From Escherichia coli O157:H7 (GTDB lineage Bacteria > Pseudomonadota > Gammaproteobacteria > Enterobacterales > Enterobacteriaceae), in the NCBI RefSeq assembly GCF_013167455.1, contig NZ_CP038328.1: DNA of 64,000 bases, one strand, 5' to 3'. The translations under genes were made by a program, and so were the position numbers. How positions within the stretch are numbered: position 1 is the stretch's first letter; the number at the start of each line of letters is the position of its first letter. Under the pieces are notes generated by a model. The model searched no databases and was not told where the DNA came from. It was given only the letters and a program-made list of their open reading frames with translations. Shown in pieces: positions 816-50,990 of this stretch.

Positions 816-904
816 ATGAGATAAATCTCCCGTGGCTAACGACATCCCCCGTCGTTGTGTATAGAATATTCCCCCGAAGTTTAAGGTTGGCACCTCCAGG
901 TTGC

Positions 905-1005
905 CACGGCACACGAAACAGCGTTGGTCCCCATATACCGCTAAACTGAAACTGCAGCGAAGCAGTTAGCAGAGCCATGTATATCAGGTCTGTTTCGTGT
1001 GCTGA
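905..1005 (+). promoter_or_regulatory. rnc leader stem-loop (rncO-like RNase III autoregulatory structure)
   Basis: Long-range inverted repeat GCACACGAAACAGC (about 909-922) with CTGTTTCGTGTGC (about 989-1002) in the rnc 5' UTR; RNase III is known to cleave its own leader. Confidence 0.55.
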
Positions 1006-2618
<1,613 letters not shown>

Positions 2619-4481: not shown

Positions 4482-4504
4482 AAATAATACCGTTCTCTTT
4501 ATAA

Positions 4505-4580
4505 AGTAAAACCCCCGAACTGGTAAGGAACGGGGGTTTTACTTTTTAACTTTAATTTTGTGCAGCACACGATTCCAACG
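4505..4580 (-). ncRNA. ohsC: Candidate OhsC antitoxin sRNA, divergent from shoB
   Basis: Minus-strand CATAAT -10 element at 4587-4592; the transcript would contain the 19-nt element at 4560-4578 and end at the 4508-4547 terminator; known shoB/ohsC layout. Confidence 0.45.
4508..4547. terminator. Bidirectional rho-independent terminator (AAAACCCCCG / CGGGGGTTTT with T-runs on both sides)
   Basis: Perfect 10-bp stem read in the sequence; serves acpS on + and the candidate ohsC transcript on -. Confidence 0.7.
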
Positions 4581-9555: not shown

Positions 9556-12500
9556 ATGATGGAAATTCTGCGTGGTTCGCCTGCACTGTCGGCATTCCGA
9601 ATCAACAAACTGCTGGCACGTTTTCAGGCTGCCAGGCTCCCGGTTCACAATATTTACGCCGAGTATGTCCATTTTGCTGACCTCAATGCGCCGTTAAACG
9701 ATGATGAGCACGCACAACTTGAACGCCTGCTGAAATATGGCCCGGCACTCGCCAGCCACGCCCCGCAAGGCAAACTCCTGCTGGTGACCCCGCGTCCTGG
9801 CACCATCTCTCCCTGGTCTTCGAAAGCGACCGATATTGCTCATAACTGCGGGCTACAACAGGTAAACCGCCTTGAGCGCGGCGTTGCTTACTATATAGAA
9901 GCCGGTACGCTGACCAATGAACAATGGCAGCAGGTTACCGCTGAACTGCACGACCGCATGATGGAAACGGTCTTTTTTGCTTTAGATGATGCAGAGCAGT
10001 TGTTTGCCCACCATCAACCGACTCCGGTTACCAGCGTTGATTTGCTGGGGCAGGGCCGTCAGGCGCTGATCGACGCTAACCTGCGTCTTGGCCTGGCTCT
10101 GGCGGAAGATGAAATTGACTATCTGCAGGATGCTTTCACAAAGCTTGGTCGTAACCCGAACGACATCGAGCTGTATATGTTCGCTCAGGCGAACTCTGAG
10201 CACTGCCGCCACAAAATTTTTAATGCCGACTGGATTATCGACGGTGAACAGCAGCCGAAATCGCTGTTCAAGATGATCAAAAATACTTTCGAAACCACGC
10301 CAGATCACGTTCTCTCTGCTTATAAAGATAACGCCGCCGTAATGGAAGGTTCTGAAGTGGGCCGCTACTTTGCTGACCACGAAACGGGCCGCTACGATTT
10401 CCATCAGGAACCGGCGCATATTCTGATGAAAGTCGAAACTCACAACCACCCGACGGCGATTTCTCCGTGGCCGGGCGCGGCGACCGGTTCCGGCGGTGAA
10501 ATCCGCGATGAAGGTGCCACCGGGCGCGGCGCGAAGCCGAAAGCGGGTTTGGTTGGTTTCTCCGTTTCCAACCTGCGAATTCCTGGCTTCGAACAGCCGT
10601 GGGAAGAAGATTTCGGTAAGCCTGAGCGCATTGTCACCGCGCTGGACATCATGACCGAAGGCCCGCTGGGCGGCGCGGCGTTTAACAACGAATTTGGTCG
10701 TCCGGCACTGAATGGCTACTTCCGTACTTATGAAGAAAAAGTGAACAGCCACAACGGCGAAGAGCTGCGCGGTTATCACAAACCGATCATGCTGGCGGGC
10801 GGGATCGGCAACATTCGCGCCGATCACGTACAAAAAGGCGAGATCAACGTCGGTGCGAAACTGGTCGTTCTCGGCGGCCCGGCAATGAACATCGGTCTTG
10901 GCGGCGGAGCGGCGTCTTCCATGGCGTCAGGTCAGTCTGATGCCGACCTCGACTTTGCTTCCGTACAGCGCGACAACCCGGAGATGGAGCGTCGCTGCCA
11001 GGAAGTGATCGACCGTTGCTGGCAGCTTGGTGATGCCAACCCAATCCTGTTTATCCACGACGTCGGCGCTGGCGGTCTTTCTAACGCGATGCCGGAACTG
11101 GTGAGCGACGGCGGGCGCGGCGGTAAATTTGAACTGCGCGATATTCTAAGCGACGAACCGGGCATGAGCCCGCTGGAAATCTGGTGTAACGAATCCCAGG
11201 AACGCTACGTGCTGGCGGTTGCTGCCGATCAATTACCGCTGTTTGACGAACTGTGTAAGCGTGAGCGCGCACCCTACGCGGTGATTGGTGAAGCGACCGA
11301 AGAACTGCATCTTTCTCTGCACGATCGTCATTTTGATAATCAGCCGATCGATCTGCCGCTGGACGTCCTGCTTGGTAAAACGCCGAAGATGACCCGCGAT
11401 GTACAAACGCTGAAAGCGAAGGGCGATGCGCTGGTCCGTGAAGGGATCACCATTGCAGACGCGGTGAAACGCGTACTGCATCTGCCGACCGTGGCGGAGA
11501 AAACTTTCCTGGTGACCATCGGTGACCGCAGCGTAACCGGCATGGTGGCGCGCGATCAGATGGTGGGGCCGTGGCAGGTGCCGGTCGCTAACTGCGCGGT
11601 CACTACCGCCAGCCTCGACAGCTACTACGGTGAAGCGATGGCGATTGGCGAGCGTGCGCCGGTTGCGCTGCTGGATTTCGCCGCCTCTGCCCGTCTGGCG
11701 GTCGGTGAAGCGTTAACCAATATTGCCGCAACACAGATTGGCGATATCAAACGCATTAAACTTTCCGCCAACTGGATGGCGGCGGCAGGCCACCCTGGTG
11801 AAGATGCGGGCCTGTATGAAGCCGTTAAAGCCGTGGGCGAAGAGCTTTGTCCGGCGCTGGGCCTGACGATCCCGGTGGGTAAAGACTCTATGTCGATGAA
11901 AACCCGCTGGCAGGAAGGTAACGAAGAGCGCGAAATGACGTCGCCGCTGTCGCTGGTGATTTCTGCATTTGCCCGCGTGGAAGATGTACGTCACACCATC
12001 ACGCCGCAGCTTTCTACCGAAGATAACGCACTGCTGCTGATTGATTTGGGCAAAGGCAATAACGCGCTGGGCGCAACGGCGCTGGCGCAGGTTTATCGTC
12101 AGCTTGGCGACAAACCGGCAGATGTACGCGATGTCGCGCAACTGAAAGGCTTCTATGACGCGATTCAGGCGCTGGTTGCACAGCGTAAGTTGCTGGCGTA
12201 TCACGACCGCTCTGATGGCGGTCTGCTGGTAACGCTGGCGGAAATGGCCTTTGCTGGTCATTGCGGCATTGACGCGGATATCGCCACTCTGGGTGACGAT
12301 CGCCTGGCGGCGTTGTTTAACGAAGAACTGGGTGCGGTCATTCAGGTTCGTGCCGCTGACCGTGAAGCGGTCGAGTCCGTACTGGCACAGCATGGGCTTG
12401 CTGATTGCGTCCATTATGTTGGGCAGGCGGTTTCCGGTGACCGTTTTGTGATTACCGCCAACGGGCAGACTGTATTCAGCGAAAGCCGCACTACGTTGCG

Positions 12501-13443
12501 TGTCTGGTGGGCAGAAACTACCTGGCAGATGCAGCGCCTGCGTGACAACCCGGAGTGTGCCGATCAGGAGCATCAGGCGAAATCAAACGACGCCGATCCG
12601 GGCCTGAATGTGAAACTGTCGTTTGATATCAACGAAGATGTGGCAGCACCGTATATTGCCACTGGCGCACGTCCGAAAGTTGCTGTGCTGCGTGAGCAGG
12701 GCGTGAACTCGCATGTTGAAATGGCGGCAGCTTTCCACCGTGCAGGCTTCGATGCTATCGACGTGCATATGAGCGACCTGCTGGCTGGACGCACGGGCCT
12801 GGAGGATTTCCACGCCCTGGTCGCGTGCGGTGGTTTCTCCTACGGTGATGTGCTGGGTGCCGGTGAAGGTTGGGCGAAGTCTATCCTGTTCAATGACCGT
12901 GTACGCGATGAGTTTGCAACCTTCTTCCACCGTCCGCAAACGCTGGCGCTGGGGGTATGTAACGGTTGCCAGATGATGTCTAATCTGCGTGAACTGATCC
13001 CAGGTAGTGAGTTGTGGCCACGTTTTGTGCGCAATACCTCCGATCGCTTTGAAGCGCGTTTCAGCTTGGTTGAAGTGACCCAAAGCCCGTCGCTGCTGTT
13101 GCAGGGGATGGTGGGCTCGCAAATGCCGATTGCTGTCTCTCATGGTGAAGGGCGCGTGGAAGTGCGTGATGCGGCGCATCTGGCGGCACTGGAAAGCAAA
13201 GGGCTGGTGGCACTGCGCTATGTCGATAACTTCGGCAAAGTCACTGAAACCTACCCGGCTAACCCGAACGGTTCTCCGAACGGTATTACGGCGGTCACGA
13301 CTGAAAGCGGTCGAGTCACCATTATGATGCCGCACCCGGAACGTGTTTTCCGTACTGTCAGCAACTCCTGGCATCCTGAAAACTGGGGCGAGGATGGCCC
13401 ATGGATGCGCATTTTCCGCAATGCACGTAAGCAGTTGGGGTAA
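9556..13443 (+). CDS. purL: Phosphoribosylformylglycinamidine synthase
   Basis: 1295-aa product from the internal ATG ([14 protein letters not shown]); the longest ORF begins at 9448. Confidence 0.96.
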
Positions 13444-13466
13444 GCCGTCAAACTCATTGGTTTTGC

Positions 13467-13498
13467 AGCCCGGATGAGGCATTCACGCCGCATCCGGC
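13467..13498. repeat. REP-like palindromic element
   Basis: GCCCGGATGAGGCATTCACGCCGCATCCGGC, the same motif family seen at 31177 and 49762. Confidence 0.5.
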
Positions 13499-13520
13499 AT
13501 TAAATACAACCGCTATTATA

Positions 13521-13546
13521 AGCTCCCAACTTCGGGAGCTTTTTTG
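13521..13546 (+). terminator. purL rho-independent terminator (AGCTCCC / GGGAGCT plus a T6 run)
   Basis: Hairpin and U-tract read in the sequence. Confidence 0.7.
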
Positions 13547-13579
13547 TGTCTGTAAATCACGACAATGGGTGGTTTACCG

Positions 13580-13660
13580 TGTCGCTTTCTGGCGACACTT
13601 AAATGATTGATTTTATTGTAATCTAATAAGTTTTTCTTAAGTTGTCTCTTTTTAGCGACA
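13580..13660 (+). promoter_or_regulatory. Two GlrR-type activator sites (TGTCGC-N6-GCGACA at 13580-13597; TGTCTC-N6-GCGACA at 13643-13660)
   Basis: Two palindromes upstream of the sigma-54 promoter of glmY; GlrR is the known activator of glmY. Confidence 0.55.
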
Positions 13661-13749
13661 CAGTGGCTGATTTACATTCAAATAGCGGGGAAGCCATAAA
13701 CCCCTCAAAGCAACGTATAATCAGTACGTTACCAAACTATTTTCTTTAT

Positions 13750-13765
13750 TGGCACAGTTACTGCA
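13750..13765 (+). promoter_or_regulatory. Sigma-54 promoter (TGGCAC-N5-CTGCA) for glmY
   Basis: -24 GG and -12 GC elements with the correct spacing, ending about 12 nt upstream of the glmY 5' end. Confidence 0.6.
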
Positions 13766-13776
13766 TAATAGTAATC

Positions 13777-13960
13777 AGTGGCTCATTCACCGACTTATGT
13801 CAGCCCCTTCGGGACGTGCTACATAAAATTCGAATGACGCACAACAAGGTGCCTGCCGTCCAACTTCTGATATCAGCGTAGCTATATCAACCATCGGGCG
13901 AAACGTCGAGTTAGGCACCGCCTTATTCCATAACAAAGCCGGGTAATTCCCGGCTTTGTT
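13777..13960 (+). ncRNA. glmY: GlmY small RNA
   Basis: Sequence AGTGGCTCATTCACCGACTTATGTCAGCCCCTTCGGGACG... recognised as GlmY; ends in the hairpin AAAGCCGGG/CCCGGCTTT plus U-tract; about 184 nt. Confidence 0.85.
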
Positions 13961-14018
13961 GTATCTGAACTTCCCCTCGGTTAGCATCAGGCTATTCGCG
14001 TCTGACGAGAGTAACACC

Positions 14019-15446
14019 TTGAAACGCTGGCCCGTTTTTCCCCGCTCATTACGACAACTGGTAATGCTGGCATTTTTGCTGATTCTGCTGCCCCTGTTGG
14101 TGCTGGCATGGCAAGCCTGGCAAAGCCTGAATGCGCTTAGCGACCAGGCGGCGCTGGTCAACCGCACCACGCTTATCGATGCCCGGCGCAGCGAAGCAAT
14201 GACCAACGCGGCGCTGGAGATGGAGCGTAGCTACCGTCAGTATTGCGTGCTGGATGACCCTACGCTTGCGAAGGTTTATCAAAGCCAGCGCAAGCGTTAC
14301 AGCGAAATGCTCGATGCCCACGCAGGCGTACTGCCAGACGATAAACTTTACCAGGCATTGCGTCAGGACTTGAACAATCTGGCCCAACTTCAGTGCAACA
14401 ACAGTGGTCCCGATGCTGCTGCTGCCGCGCGTCTGGAAGCCTTTGCCAGTGCCAATACCGAAATGGTACAGGCCACGCGCACAGTAGTGTTCTCTCGTGG
14501 GCAGCAACTTCAGCGTGAAATCGCCGAACGTGGGCAATATTTTGGTTGGCAATCGCTGGTGCTATTTCTGGTGAGTCTGGTAATGGTACTGCTTTTCACG
14601 CGGATGATTATCGGGCCGGTGAAAAATATTGAACGGATGATCAATCGGTTGGGGGAAGGGCGTTCTCTGGGCAATAGCGTTTCGTTCAGTGGACCGAGCG
14701 AGTTACGCTCGGTTGGGCAACGTATTCTTTGGTTAAGTGAGCGCCTGTCATGGCTGGAATCCCAACGCCATCAATTTTTAAGACATTTATCTCATGAATT
14801 AAAAACGCCACTGGCGAGTATGCGCGAGGGCACTGAATTACTGGCTGATCAGGTTGTCGGGCCGCTTACGCCAGAGCAAAAAGAGGTGGTGAGCATTCTT
14901 GATAGCAGCAGCCGCAATTTGCAAAAACTGATCGAACAACTGCTTGATTACAACCGTAAACAGGCGGACAGTGCGGTGGAACTAGATAATGTTGAGTTAG
15001 CACCGCTGGTGGAGACAGTAGTTTCTGCTCATAGCCTGCCCGCACGGGCTAAAATGATGCATACCGACGTCGATCTCAAAGCAACAGCTTGCCTGGCGGA
15101 GCCAATGCTGCTGATGAGCGTACTGGATAATCTTTACTCCAATGCGGTGCACTACGGGGCTGAATCCGGTAACATTTGCCTTCGCAGCAGTTTACATGGT
15201 GCGCGGGTTTATATTGATGTCATCAATACAGGCACGCCCATTCCGCAAGAGGAACGCGCCATGATCTTCGAACCCTTTTTTCAGGGAAGCCACCAGCGAA
15301 AAGGGGCGGTGAAGGGCAGCGGTCTGGGATTAAGCATTGCCAGGGATTGTATTCGCCGTATGCAAGGGGAACTGTATCTGGTCGACGAGAGCGGGCAAGA
15401 CGTTTGTTTCCGCATTGAATTACCGTCGTCGAAAAACACGAAATAA
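14019..15446 (+). CDS. glrK: Sensor histidine kinase GlrK
   Basis: 475-aa product from a TTG start; transmembrane N-terminus, H-box HELKTPL and an ATPase domain. Confidence 0.88.
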   Translation: MKRWPVFPRSLRQLVMLAFLLILLPLLVLAWQAWQSLNALSDQAALVNRTTLIDARRSEAMTNAALEMERSYRQYCVLDDPTLAKVYQSQRKRYSEMLDAHAGVLPDDKLYQALRQDLNNLAQLQCNNSGPDAAAAARLEAFASANTEMVQATRTVVFSRGQQLQREIAERGQYFGWQSLVLFLVSLVMVLLFTRMIIGPVKNIERMINRLGEGRSLGNSVSFSGPSELRSVGQRILWLSERLSWLESQRHQFLRHLSHELKTPLASMREGTELLADQVVGPLTPEQKEVVSILDSSSRNLQKLIEQLLDYNRKQADSAVELDNVELAPLVETVVSAHSLPARAKMMHTDVDLKATACLAEPMLLMSVLDNLYSNAVHYGAESGNICLRSSLHGARVYIDVINTGTPIPQEERAMIFEPFFQGSHQRKGAVKGSGLGLSIARDCIRRMQGELYLVDESGQDVCFRIELPSSKNTK

Positions 15447-15610
15447 TGCTAACAGCCTATCCCATCAGGCTATTTTATTTGTCAGTTCGGCCCCGGGCAG
15501 TGCTCGAAATCCTCACGTACGACATGTACGCTCCGGTTTCTCCGCGCTGTCCATGTCCAAACTGTCTGCAACAATTACGCCCACTGGGATAGGCTTTAAG
15601 TCTGGTGAAT

Positions 15611-16324
15611 ATGCGACACATTTTTCAACGATTATTGCCCCGACGGCTGTGGCTGGCAGGGCTGCCATGTCTGGCATTGCTAGGTTGCGTGCAGAATCAC
15701 AATAAGCCAGCCATTGATACGCCAGCAGAAGAAAAAATTCCGGTTTATCAACTGGCTGACTATCTTTCTACTGAATGTAGCGACATCTGGGCGCTGCAAG
15801 GTAAATCAACCGAAACCAATCCGCTTTACTGGCTGCGGGCGATGGATTGTGCTGATCGTTTAATGCCTGCGCAGTCGCGTCAGCAAGCTCGCCAATATGA
15901 CGACGGCAGCTGGCAAAATACCTTTAAACAAGGGATTTTGCTCGCCGACGCCAAAATTACGCCATATGAGCGCCGCCAGCTGGTCGCGCGTATTGAAGCG
16001 TTAAGTACCGAGATCCCGGCACAGGTTCGCCCACTGTATCAACTCTGGCGCGACGGTCAGGCGCTGCAACTGCAACTGGCGGAAGAGCGCCAACGCTACA
16101 GTAAACTCCAGCAGTCCAGCGACAGCGAGCTGGATACATTGCGCCAGCAACATCACGTTCTACAGCAGCAACTGGAACTCACCACCCGCAAGCTGGAAAA
16201 CCTGACTGATATTGAACGCCAGCTCTCGACCCGCAAACCGGCTGGAAATTTCTCGCCGGATACGCCACACGAGAGTGAAAAGCCCGCGCCATCCACCCAT
16301 GAGGTCACTCCTGATGAGCCATAA
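15611..16324 (+). CDS. qseG: Two-component-system accessory lipoprotein QseG (YfhG)
   Basis: 237-aa product with a lipobox-like LLGC signal and a Q-rich coiled C-terminus; sits between glrK and glrR. Confidence 0.85.
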   Translation: MRHIFQRLLPRRLWLAGLPCLALLGCVQNHNKPAIDTPAEEKIPVYQLADYLSTECSDIWALQGKSTETNPLYWLRAMDCADRLMPAQSRQQARQYDDGSWQNTFKQGILLADAKITPYERRQLVARIEALSTEIPAQVRPLYQLWRDGQALQLQLAEERQRYSKLQQSSDSELDTLRQQHHVLQQQLELTTRKLENLTDIERQLSTRKPAGNFSPDTPHESEKPAPSTHEVTPDEP

Positions 16325-17648
16325 ACCTGCGCATTTATTATTGGTCGATGACGATCCGGGATTGCTGAAACTGCTTGGCCTGCGCCTGACCAGCGAAGGC
16401 TACAGCGTGGTCACGGCGGAAAGTGGCGCTGAAGGATTACGGGTACTGAATCGCGAAAAAGTAGATTTAGTCATCAGCGACCTGCGGATGGATGAAATGG
16501 ACGGTATGCAGCTGTTTGCTGAAATCCAGAAAGTGCAGCCGGGAATGCCGGTAATTATTCTTACCGCGCATGGTTCTATTCCCGATGCCGTTGCTGCAAC
16601 ACAGCAGGGCGTTTTTAGTTTCCTCACCAAGCCTGTTGATAAAGACGCGCTATATCAGGCAATTGATGATGCGCTGGAACAATCCGCGCCAGCCACCGAC
16701 GAACGCTGGCGCGAGGCGATTGTCACCCGCAGCCCGCTGATGCTGCGTTTGCTGGAACAGGCGCGGCTGGTGGCGCAATCAGACGTCAGCGTTTTGATTA
16801 ATGGCCAGAGCGGCACCGGGAAAGAGATTTTCGCCCAGGCTATCCACAACGCCAGCCCGCGCAATAGCAAACCATTTATTGCTATTAACTGTGGTGCATT
16901 GCCTGAGCAATTGCTGGAGTCGGAGCTGTTTGGTCATGCGCGTGGCGCGTTTACTGGCGCTGTCAGCAATCGCGAAGGTTTATTCCAGGCGGCGGAAGGC
17001 GGAACGCTATTTCTCGATGAGATTGGCGATATGCCTGCGCCGTTGCAGGTCAAACTGTTGCGCGTGTTGCAGGAGCGTAAAGTGCGCCCGCTGGGCAGTA
17101 ACCGCGATATTGATATCAATGTGCGGATTATTTCTGCCACTCACCGTGATCTGCCAAAAGCGATGGCGCGCGGGGAATTCCGCGAAGATCTCTATTACCG
17201 CCTCAACGTTGTCAGCCTGAAAATTCCGGCACTGGCGGAGCGCACAGAAGACATTCCGCTACTGGCAAATCACCTGTTGCGCCAGGCGGCAGAGCGACAT
17301 AAACCGTTTGTCCGCGCGTTTTCCACCGATGCGATGAAACGCCTGATGACCGCGAGCTGGCCGGGTAATGTGCGCCAGTTGGTCAACGTGATTGAACAGT
17401 GCGTGGCGCTGACCTCATCTCCGGTGATTAGCGATGCATTAGTAGAGCAGGCGCTGGAGGGTGAAAATACGGCGCTGCCAACCTTTGTTGAGGCACGTAA
17501 TCAGTTTGAACTCAACTATTTGCGTAAGCTGCTGCAAATTACCAAAGGCAACGTCACCCACGCGGCGAGAATGGCGGGGCGCAACCGGACAGAATTTTAT
17601 AAACTGCTTTCCCGACACGAGCTGGATGCAAACGATTTCAAGGAATGA
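16314..17648 (+). CDS. glrR: Sigma-54-dependent response regulator GlrR
   Basis: 444-aa product from the internal ATG ([14 protein letters not shown]); receiver domain, AAA+ GAFTGA motif and C-terminal HTH. Confidence 0.92.
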
Positions 17649-43185: not shown

Positions 43186-43296
43186 TAAAAAGTATTCAGA
43201 ATCAGGCCGGGGCGTATCGCGCTCCGTAAACACGGTCGTACATCCAGCCGGTAGCCTGGTTCCTTGCATTGAGTGATGTACGGAGTTTATAGAGCA

Positions 43297-49895: not shown

Positions 49896-50672
49896 ATGTC
49901 CGAAACAAAAAATGAACTTGAAGACCTGCTGGAAAAAGCAGCAACCGAACCGGCGCACCGCCCGGCCTTTTTCCGTACTCTACTGGAATCCACCGTCTGG
50001 GTGCCTGGTACGGCGGCGCAGGGCGAGGCTGTGGTTGAAGATAGCGCGCTTGATTTACAGCACTGGGAAAAAGAAGACGGCACCAGCGTCATTCCTTTTT
50101 TTACCTCGTTAGAAGCACTTCAACAGGCGGTTGAAGACGAACAGGCATTTGTCGTAATGCCCGTTCGCACATTGTTTGAGATGACCCTTGGCGAAACGCT
50201 CTTCCTTAATGCCAAACTGCCGACCGGTAAAGAATTTATGCCGCGTGAAATCAGTTTGTTGATTGGTGAAGAGGGAAATCCGCTGAGCAGCCAGGAAATC
50301 CTGGAAGGCGGTGAATCGCTGATATTATCGGAAGTCGCAGAGCCGCCAGCACAAATGATTGATTCACTCACCACCTTATTTAAAACCATTAAGCCTGTGA
50401 AGCGTGCTTTTATTTGTTCAATTAAAGAGAACGAAGAGGCACAGCCTAATTTACTTATTGGCATTGAAGCCGATGGTGATATCGAAGAAATTATTCAGGT
50501 GGCGGGAAGTGTAGCGACCGATACATTACCTGGCGATGAACCAATCGATATTTGTCAGGTGAAAAAAGGGGAAAAAGGAATTAGCCACTTTATTACCGAA
50601 CATATTGCGCCATTCTATGAACGTCGCTGGGGTGGTTTTTTGCGTGACTTTAAACAGAATCGGATAATCTAA
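49896..50672 (+). CDS. sseB: SseB family protein
   Basis: 258-aa product from the internal ATG (MSETKNELEDLLEKA). Confidence 0.88.
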   Translation: MSETKNELEDLLEKAATEPAHRPAFFRTLLESTVWVPGTAAQGEAVVEDSALDLQHWEKEDGTSVIPFFTSLEALQQAVEDEQAFVVMPVRTLFEMTLGETLFLNAKLPTGKEFMPREISLLIGEEGNPLSSQEILEGGESLILSEVAEPPAQMIDSLTTLFKTIKPVKRAFICSIKENEEAQPNLLIGIEADGDIEEIIQVAGSVATDTLPGDEPIDICQVKKGEKGISHFITEHIAPFYERRWGGFLRDFKQNRII

Positions 50673-50675
50673 AAT

Positions 50676-50990
50676 ATGCCGCCCCAAAGGGCGGCATTCG
50701 GGCTTACCTGCTGCTCTGAAGGTTGTTAATCACCAGTAAATTGTCGCCGGAGAGACTCCGGTTATTATTTACCTCGGTTAACAGCGCACCAGAAACAATA
50801 AGTACGATACAGAAGCACCGTATCTTCATTGTGCGGTCCATGCGAAGACCGCATCACGACAGCACCACTGGCGATATTGCCGCGATAGCAAGCACTGTGG
50901 GGTGCCTGTATTTACGGTCATGGAACATTCTTTCCTAAAGCCAGCGCCCGTTTGCGAGACGGCGAAAAGGGCCATTAAGAATAATACTCT
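50676..50990 (-). ncRNA. ryfA: ryfA-like transcript (a short mRNA annotated as an sRNA); 5' end uncertain
   Basis: Minus-strand rho-independent terminator at 50676-50697 (ATGCCGCCC/GGGCGGCAT then a U-rich tail); position between sseB and sseA matches ryfA. Confidence 0.45.
50704..50829 (-). CDS. Candidate small hydrophobic protein inside the ryfA transcript (41 aa, MKIRCFCIVLIVSGALLTEVNNNRSLSGDNLLVINNLQSSR; TimP-like toxin candidate)
   Basis: ORF below the track cutoff, read by hand on the minus strand; stop lies 7 nt before the terminator hairpin; alternative in-frame start at 50841; no strong Shine-Dalgarno. Confidence 0.3.
   Translation of the reverse strand: MKIRCFCIVLIVSGALLTEVNNNRSLSGDNLLVINNLQSSR

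Follow-up and report, generated by a model that had tools for sequence, protein, structure and literature searches.

The glmY locus of Escherichia coli O157:H7 and its predicted sigma-54/sigma-70, GlrR/QseF and IHF control elements

The region downstream of purL in the 64,000-nucleotide stretch of DNA analyzed here (the window) is almost certainly the canonical E. coli glmY locus in its O157:H7 allele, with complete sigma-54/sigma-70/GlrR/IHF control and RapZ-decoy function. Nothing in the sequence argues against this reading. This analysis shows the identity of the locus, its coordinates, its motifs and their statistics, the fold of the RNA, and conservation both across and within species; the binding of proteins, the use of the promoters, the processing and the decoy mechanism acting on RapZ come from the literature. 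The glmY module has already been described in full, and this allele changes nothing in the published picture. The initial annotation had called the region a textbook sRNA module and a good anchor, which is how we see it too: all parts are published, and the value of the locus is mainly as an anchor and quality check that establishes the window as DNA of the E. coli O157:H7 type. Missing from that annotation were a sigma-70 -10 element that overlaps the sigma-54 promoter, both IHF sites and the processing to a 148-nt form, all of them published as parts of the module (PMC3045617, PMC4152352).

At 100% identity to NZ_AP018488.1, the window is of E. coli O157:H7 type; it corresponds to K-12 positions of about 2.64-2.70 Mb in reverse complement. 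Positions 13440-14030 are 100% identical to E. coli O157:H7 strain PV15-279. NCBIfam profiles and RefSeq annotation gave the gene order purL-glmY-qseE/glrK-qseG-glrR/qseF-glnB, confirming the proposed placement of glmY between purL and glrK. This synteny, with purL upstream and glrK/qseE-qseG-glrR/qseF directly downstream of glmY, has been described as conserved (PMC3045617). The neighboring features are as follows.

9556-13443, plus strand: purL, phosphoribosylformylglycinamidine synthase (NCBIfam NF003672, 2275 bits; RefSeq purL, 3888 nt, the end of which aligns to 13443)
13468-13524, plus strand: REP-type palindromic element between purL and its terminator (naRNA4, REP-derived, 24.4 bits, sub-threshold)
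13520-13545, plus strand: purL intrinsic terminator, a hairpin with T-run (8-pair stem at 13520-13541, then TTTTGTGT; terminator scan)
14019-15446, plus strand: qseE/glrK sensor kinase with a TTG start (RefSeq CDS mapping; histidine-kinase family matches)
15605-16324, plus strand: qseG (yfhG), lipoprotein and QseE cofactor (NCBIfam NF007997, 360 bits)
16311-17648, plus strand: glrR/qseF, sigma-54-dependent response regulator that binds the three activator sites described below (NCBIfam NF011695 GlrR, 982.7 bits; the profile begins at ORF residue 34)

The REP element, whose naRNA4 score compares with a gathering score of 59.5, lies outside the glmY module and defines its left edge; it is 17 nt longer than its K-12 equivalent.

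A whole-window Rfam scan matched GlmY_tke1 (RF00128) to 13777-13924 on the plus strand with 147.1 bits (E=8e-33, gathering score 33) across the full model (positions 1-163 of 163). The annotated K-12 glmY (b4441, 184 nt) aligned to 13777-13960 with 183 of 184 positions identical and a single mismatch. Together, these results bear out the glmY identity given in the initial annotation, which had named the Rfam search beforehand as its check; the alignment to b4441 likewise shows its ends, 13777 and 13960, to be right for the primary transcript. Three features describe the RNA.

13777-13960, plus strand: glmY primary transcript, 184 nt (K-12 b4441 alignment and Rfam RF00128)
13777-13924, plus strand: processed active form of GlmY, 148 nt (extent from Rfam, length from PMC4152352)
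13932-13960, plus strand: glmY intrinsic terminator (GC core GCCGGG/CCCGGC at 13938-13954, then TTTGTTGT; predicted 12-pair hairpin)

Both lengths, 184 nt for the primary and 148 nt for the processed RNA, are published (PMC4152352), and the 3' processing from 184 to 148 nt yields the active, RapZ-binding form (PMC4152352, PMC7073468). The Rfam match ends at +148 (13924), consistent with the processed 3' end described in PMC4152352, and the remaining 13925-13960, beyond the model and within the b4441 annotation, comprises a linker and the terminator hairpin. A permissive Rfam scan of both strands of 13400-14100 returned only GlmY and the sub-threshold REP-derived match. Two mechanically called ORFs over glmY (13642-13881, plus strand; 13787-14206, minus strand) were set aside, as they overlap a structured, conserved non-coding RNA and have no RefSeq annotation.

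The paralogue GlmZ (RF00083), or a GlmZ-like base-pairing sRNA in place of the decoy GlmY, has to be considered as the identity of this RNA, given that both families belong to clan CL00011 and share a similar fold (PMC4152352), with stem-loops arranged in a similar way and RapZ-binding mimicry in common. GlmZ in Yersinia and Salmonella also has the same sigma-54/GlrR/IHF promoter design (PMC3045617). Unlike GlmY, GlmZ has a region that pairs with glmS and undergoes cleavage by RapZ/RNase E, and in E. coli it is expressed from a sigma-70-only promoter at a different locus (PMC4152352). We regard a GlmZ identity as next to impossible here: the GlmY model won the clan competition and the lower-scoring, overlapping GlmZ match was discarded, the locus is that of purL/qseE and not hemY/aslA (PMC4152352), and all but one position agrees with K-12 glmY.

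The predicted fold of GlmY has a minimum free energy of -64.2 kcal/mol (z = -5.5), and none of 200 shuffled sequences was as stable. For comparison across species, homologous loci were fetched using a pattern wholly inside the RNA, which avoids circularity on the upstream region. The search gave 120 matches, of which 9 from outside the Enterobacterales (e.g., Chloroflexales, Paenibacillus and Prevotellaceae) were dropped as chance, roughly a dozen chance matches having been expected beforehand; the final set comprised 109 Enterobacterales species with at least 300 nt of upstream sequence. An RNAalifold consensus of 97 distinct GlmY sequences reproduced the stem-loops of the single-sequence fold, and 7 of its 31 pairs showed compensatory changes. 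Because several invariant helix columns in this alignment were imposed by the search pattern, independent covariation evidence comes from the variable helices only.

In the single-sequence fold the last 29 nt of glmY form a 12-pair hairpin followed by a T-run, and the 3' end of this terminator coincides with the annotated 3' end of K-12 glmY. The generic promoter/terminator scan that found the purL terminator missed this one, likely as its maximal stem absorbs the T-run. The terminator bears on whether glmY might mainly be the 5' leader of a glmY-qseE-qseG-qseF(-glnB) operon, in which sigma-54 read-through would let the two-component system regulate itself. From the glmY 3' end at 13960 it is only 58 nt to the qseE start at 14019 on the same strand, and glmY-qseE-qseG-qseF is reported to be one operon in Proteus mirabilis (PMC8745638). 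Against this, the strong hairpin and T-run close glmY, inclusion of the entire glmY locus in a K-12 fusion did not raise qseE expression, and virtually no read-through was seen by RT-PCR (PMC6075780). The K-12 sequence corresponding to 13777-14030, through the qseE start codon, is identical except for base 13830, and qseE has its own weak promoter with a transcription start 25 bp before the start codon (PMC6075780), or about 13994 in the window. A leader function in O157 is thus very unlikely, and glmY is better read as an independent sRNA gene. By eye, a possible qseE -10 element (TAGCAT, 13982-13987) and -35 element (TTGTAT, 13959-13964) can be seen, and on this reading the candidate -35 would fall inside the T-run of the glmY terminator.

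The region upstream of 13777 contains four predicted promoter and IHF elements.

13750-13765, plus strand: sigma-54 promoter TGGCAC-N5-CTGCA (TGGCACAGTTACTGCA), with GG at -26/-25 and GC at -14/-13 relative to 13777
13764-13769, plus strand: CATAAT, sigma-70 -10 element overlapping the -12 element (read from the sequence; characterized as a -10 in PMC3045617)
13600-13612, minus strand: IHF consensus site between the second and third activator sites, AATCAATCATTTA (-177 to -165; WATCARNNNNTTR match; strong footprint peak)
13719-13731, plus strand: IHF consensus site between the third activator site and the promoter, AATCAGTACGTTA (-58 to -46; WATCARNNNNTTR match; moderate footprint peak)

A K-12 glmY with a sigma-54/sigma-70 promoter was reportedly described by Reichenbach in 2009, a study cited in Gopel 2011. 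The present element, found where the initial annotation had placed it, spans -27 to -12 and has one mismatch to the consensus TGGCAC-N5-TTGCA / TTGCW. Matches of this quality are not above chance on their own, with 1 found in 64 kb against 1.94 expected; what gives the motif weight is that it keeps a constant distance to the RNA 5' end and is conserved across species. A GG-N10-GC pattern with the GG at -27 to -25 was present in 108 of the 109 species, whereas CATAAT was present in 46, consistent with the overlapping sigma-70 promoter being, as published, confined to a subset of genera.

These counts also bear on the possibility that the TGGCAC-N5-CTGCA match is fortuitous and that glmY is driven by the CATAAT sigma-70 promoter only. 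Nearly two one-mismatch matches are expected per window, as stated above, and a good -10 hexamer overlaps the one found. However, the match keeps its offset in far more species than have CATAAT, the activator gene glrR lies in the same locus with three matches to its binding site upstream of glmY, and dependence on RpoN, GlrR and IHF has been published for the identical K-12 promoter (PMC3045617). A purely sigma-70-driven glmY is therefore exceedingly improbable. The overlapping sigma-70 promoter's function in K-12 is likewise published (PMC3045617). A search for a sigma-70 -35 element with at least 4 of 6 matches found none, and a generic promoter scan of the locus reported no sigma-70 promoter.

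The two predicted IHF sites flank the third activator site, an arrangement as in PMC3045617, where Gopel et al. found IHF and 'IHF site 1' to be essential for the glmY sigma-54 promoter. Exact IHF consensus at the 13600-13612 site was conserved in 73 of 109 species. As a separate observation, the WATCARNNNNTTR consensus has 14 occurrences in the window; dinucleotide shuffles give an expectation of 3.7, and not one of 100 shuffles contained as many as 14.

Upstream of the promoter lie three predicted activator-binding sites (ABS), numbered from the purL side.

13547-13564, unstranded: ABS1, predicted GlrR/QseF site TGTCTGTAAATCACGACA (-230 to -213; exact TGTC-N10-GACA; footprint peak)
13580-13597, unstranded: ABS2, predicted GlrR/QseF site TGTCGCTTTCTGGCGACA (-197 to -180; exact TGTC-N10-GACA)
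13643-13660, unstranded: ABS3, predicted GlrR/QseF site TGTCTCTTTTTAGCGACA (-134 to -117; exact TGTC-N10-GACA)

The two palindromes reported by the initial annotation correspond to ABS2 and ABS3. Its remark that a third site was not obvious does not hold, as ABS1 matches exactly; it starts 2 nt past the T-run of the purL terminator and ends 16 nt before the range that the annotation covered (13580-13960). TGTC-N10-GACA has exactly three exact matches in the 64-kb window (0.77 expected), all upstream of glmY and within 114 bp of each other; the rough chance probability of two further sites falling within 120 bp of one is about 4e-6. The start-to-start spacings are 33 bp (ABS1-ABS2) and 63 bp (ABS2-ABS3), close to three and six helical turns, so that all three sites would be expected to lie on one face of the helix. 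Allowing one mismatch, the window contained 16 matches against 20.6 expected and no credible fourth GlrR site. The sole extra one-mismatch match nearby, at 13356-13373 inside purL, was judged to be chance.

Previously, GlrR was shown to bind three motifs of this kind at a distance of more than 100 bp upstream of K-12 glmY (PMC3045617, PMC4152352), and EMSA data on GlrR/QseF binding cover these positions with K-12 (PMC3045617) and EHEC (PMC3903284) fragments. ABS2 is reported to be essential for sigma-54 promoter activity in K-12 and ABS1 to be dispensable (PMC3045617); the K-12 reporter fusions, from -238 to +22, just include a site at -230 (PMC3045617).

Among the 109 species, ABS1 was exact in 85 and had at most one mismatch in 101; the corresponding numbers were 95 and 106 for ABS2 and 28 and 97 for ABS3. 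The ABS1-ABS2 spacing was 31-33 bp throughout (33 bp in 66 species) and the ABS2-ABS3 spacing was 63 bp in 103 species. A MAFFT-based footprint peaked at the six ABS half-sites, the upstream IHF site and the -24/-12 elements, and also at the ATCA/TTA cores of the downstream IHF site. An enhancer with only two functional-looking GlrR sites, the third being degenerate or lost, would fit the two sites visible inside 13580-13960 and the reported dispensability of ABS1 (PMC3045617). This is refuted by the exact motif at 13547-13564, which is identical in K-12, matches exactly in most species and keeps the 33-bp distance to ABS2 most often seen, leaving a two-site enhancer extremely unlikely.

It is ABS3, not ABS1, that departs most from TGTC-N10-GACA across the species set, usually at the fourth base of the left half-site, and Escherichia belongs to the minority of species with three perfect sites. 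Edwardsiella hoshinae is the only one of the 109 loci that has neither GG-N10-GC at the expected offset nor a recognizable TGTC-N10-GACA; its glmY may have a different promoter type. The glmY promoter region of Escherichia albertii NBRC 107761 (TGGCATGCTTTCTGCA) differs markedly from that of E. coli, with one mismatch each in ABS1 and ABS2 and no ABS3 at one mismatch or fewer. The GlmY RNA of this strain is nearly identical to that of E. coli.

Comparison to K-12 showed the activator sites (ABS1, ABS2 and ABS3 each), the IHF cores, the -24/-12 elements, CATAAT, the terminator and the flanking genes all to be identical. In addition to the longer REP element, the differences are a T (K-12, C) at -4 (13773), a T (K-12, A) at +54 (13830), which is the single mismatch within the RNA, and about 12 spacer substitutions in 13576-13632 and 13688-13700. 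The A at 13830 was found in K-12 and strain 10R, and the window and the other E. coli alleles examined have T; across species this position, which lies within an internal loop, is T in nearly all and C in a few. The A of the K-12 reference allele looks like the derived state.

The glmY region was present in 5,425 of 5,426 complete E. coli genomes, one genome having no match and one having two copies. Over the 230-bp control region (13547-13776), 343 of the 5,425 genomes were at least 99% identical to the window allele, 3,228 were 95-99% identical and 1,854 were 90-95% identical; for core DNA of E. coli, this is an unusual degree of polymorphism. Seven divergent alleles carried substitutions in the N10 spacers of ABS1 and ABS2, in 13601-13632 of the ABS2-ABS3 spacer, in 13688-13711 and at position -4 (13773), which is tri-allelic (T, C or G) among them. 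All TGTC/GACA half-sites, both IHF cores, TGGCAC, CTGCA and CATAAT were invariant in the seven alleles, and their GlmY RNA differed at three positions at most. This pattern is as expected if the functional elements are under purifying selection and the spacer drifts freely.

These strain-specific spacer polymorphisms may have regulatory meaning. A close published counterpart of the window allele is the glmY region of EHEC 86-24 (Gruber & Sperandio 2014, PMC3903284), which is of the same pathotype and has QseF sites and overlapping sigma-54/sigma-70 promoters. QseB is reported to bind the EHEC glmY regulatory region at a site whose sequence differs from K-12 (PMC3903284, PMC6075780). The differences between K-12 and O157 form clusters at 13603-13632 and 13688-13700, no more than candidate positions for this QseB site. 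Tentatively, the spacer could serve strain-specific tuning of the enhancer, the O157-type allele perhaps carrying an extra input such as this QseB site, although we consider this rather doubtful. If true, it would couple glmY to QseBC signaling in EHEC and not in K-12. The idea of a QseB input has partly been raised already (PMC3903284, PMC6075780), and the new part would be the mapping of that input to specific SNPs.

Taken as a canonical glmY locus, the module would work as follows. Transcription of glmY from 13777 would be driven by two perfectly overlapping promoters, as characterized for K-12 together with three GlrR sites and two IHF sites (Gopel 2011, PMC3045617). The sigma-54 promoter at 13750-13765 would be activated at a distance by phosphorylated GlrR/QseF bound at the sites at -230, -197 and -134, with IHF-induced bending at the sites flanking ABS3 allowing the activator to reach the polymerase. 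In published work, QseE/GlrK, helped by the lipoprotein QseG, phosphorylates QseF/GlrR (PMC6075780), and at glmY the sigma-54 holoenzyme is activated by phosphorylated QseF on the activator sites together with bending by IHF (PMC3045617, PMC3903284). CATAAT at 13764-13769 would provide a weak constitutive sigma-70 promoter, which is known to give basal expression and to be partly occluded by bound sigma-54 holoenzyme (PMC3045617, PMC3903284).

The 184-nt transcript would end at the 13932-13960 terminator and be trimmed to the 148-nt form at 13777-13924, which would mimic the sRNA GlmZ and sequester the RNase E adaptor RapZ. GlmZ would then escape cleavage and pair with glmS mRNA, raising GlcN6P synthase, in line with the published decoy mechanism in which GlmY sequesters RapZ, GlmZ is spared from RNase E and glmS is activated (PMC4152352). 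RapZ free of GlcN6P would stimulate QseE/QseF and so close a feedback loop; RapZ has been described as a GlcN6P sensor that stimulates QseE/QseF in its ligand-free state, with GlmY binding to RapZ feeding back negatively (PMC7073468). This makes glmY the entry point of a circuit for GlcN6P and cell-envelope homeostasis (QseE/QseF to GlmY to RapZ to GlmZ to glmS). In EHEC the GlmY/GlmZ pair would also tune LEE4/LEE5 and espFu. This role of glmY as a modulator of LEE and EspFu is published: in EHEC 86-24, GlmY and GlmZ are reported to control LEE4/LEE5 and espFu, promoting EspFu translation and destabilizing the LEE4/LEE5 mRNAs (PMC3903284).

Feature lists of the PGAP-annotated RefSeq E. coli records that were examined do not contain glmY; the curated K-12 record alone lists it. 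Omission of the GlmY sRNA is systematic across RefSeq E. coli genomes, an annotation gap and not gene loss. Other Rfam matches above threshold in the window were ryfA (50671-50975, minus strand, 323 bits), the rncO leader (876-1090, plus strand, 259 bits), the iscRS stability element (43186-43295, plus strand, 128 bits) and the antitoxin sRNA ohsC (4503-4579, minus strand, 101 bits), all as would be expected in this chromosomal region of E. coli.
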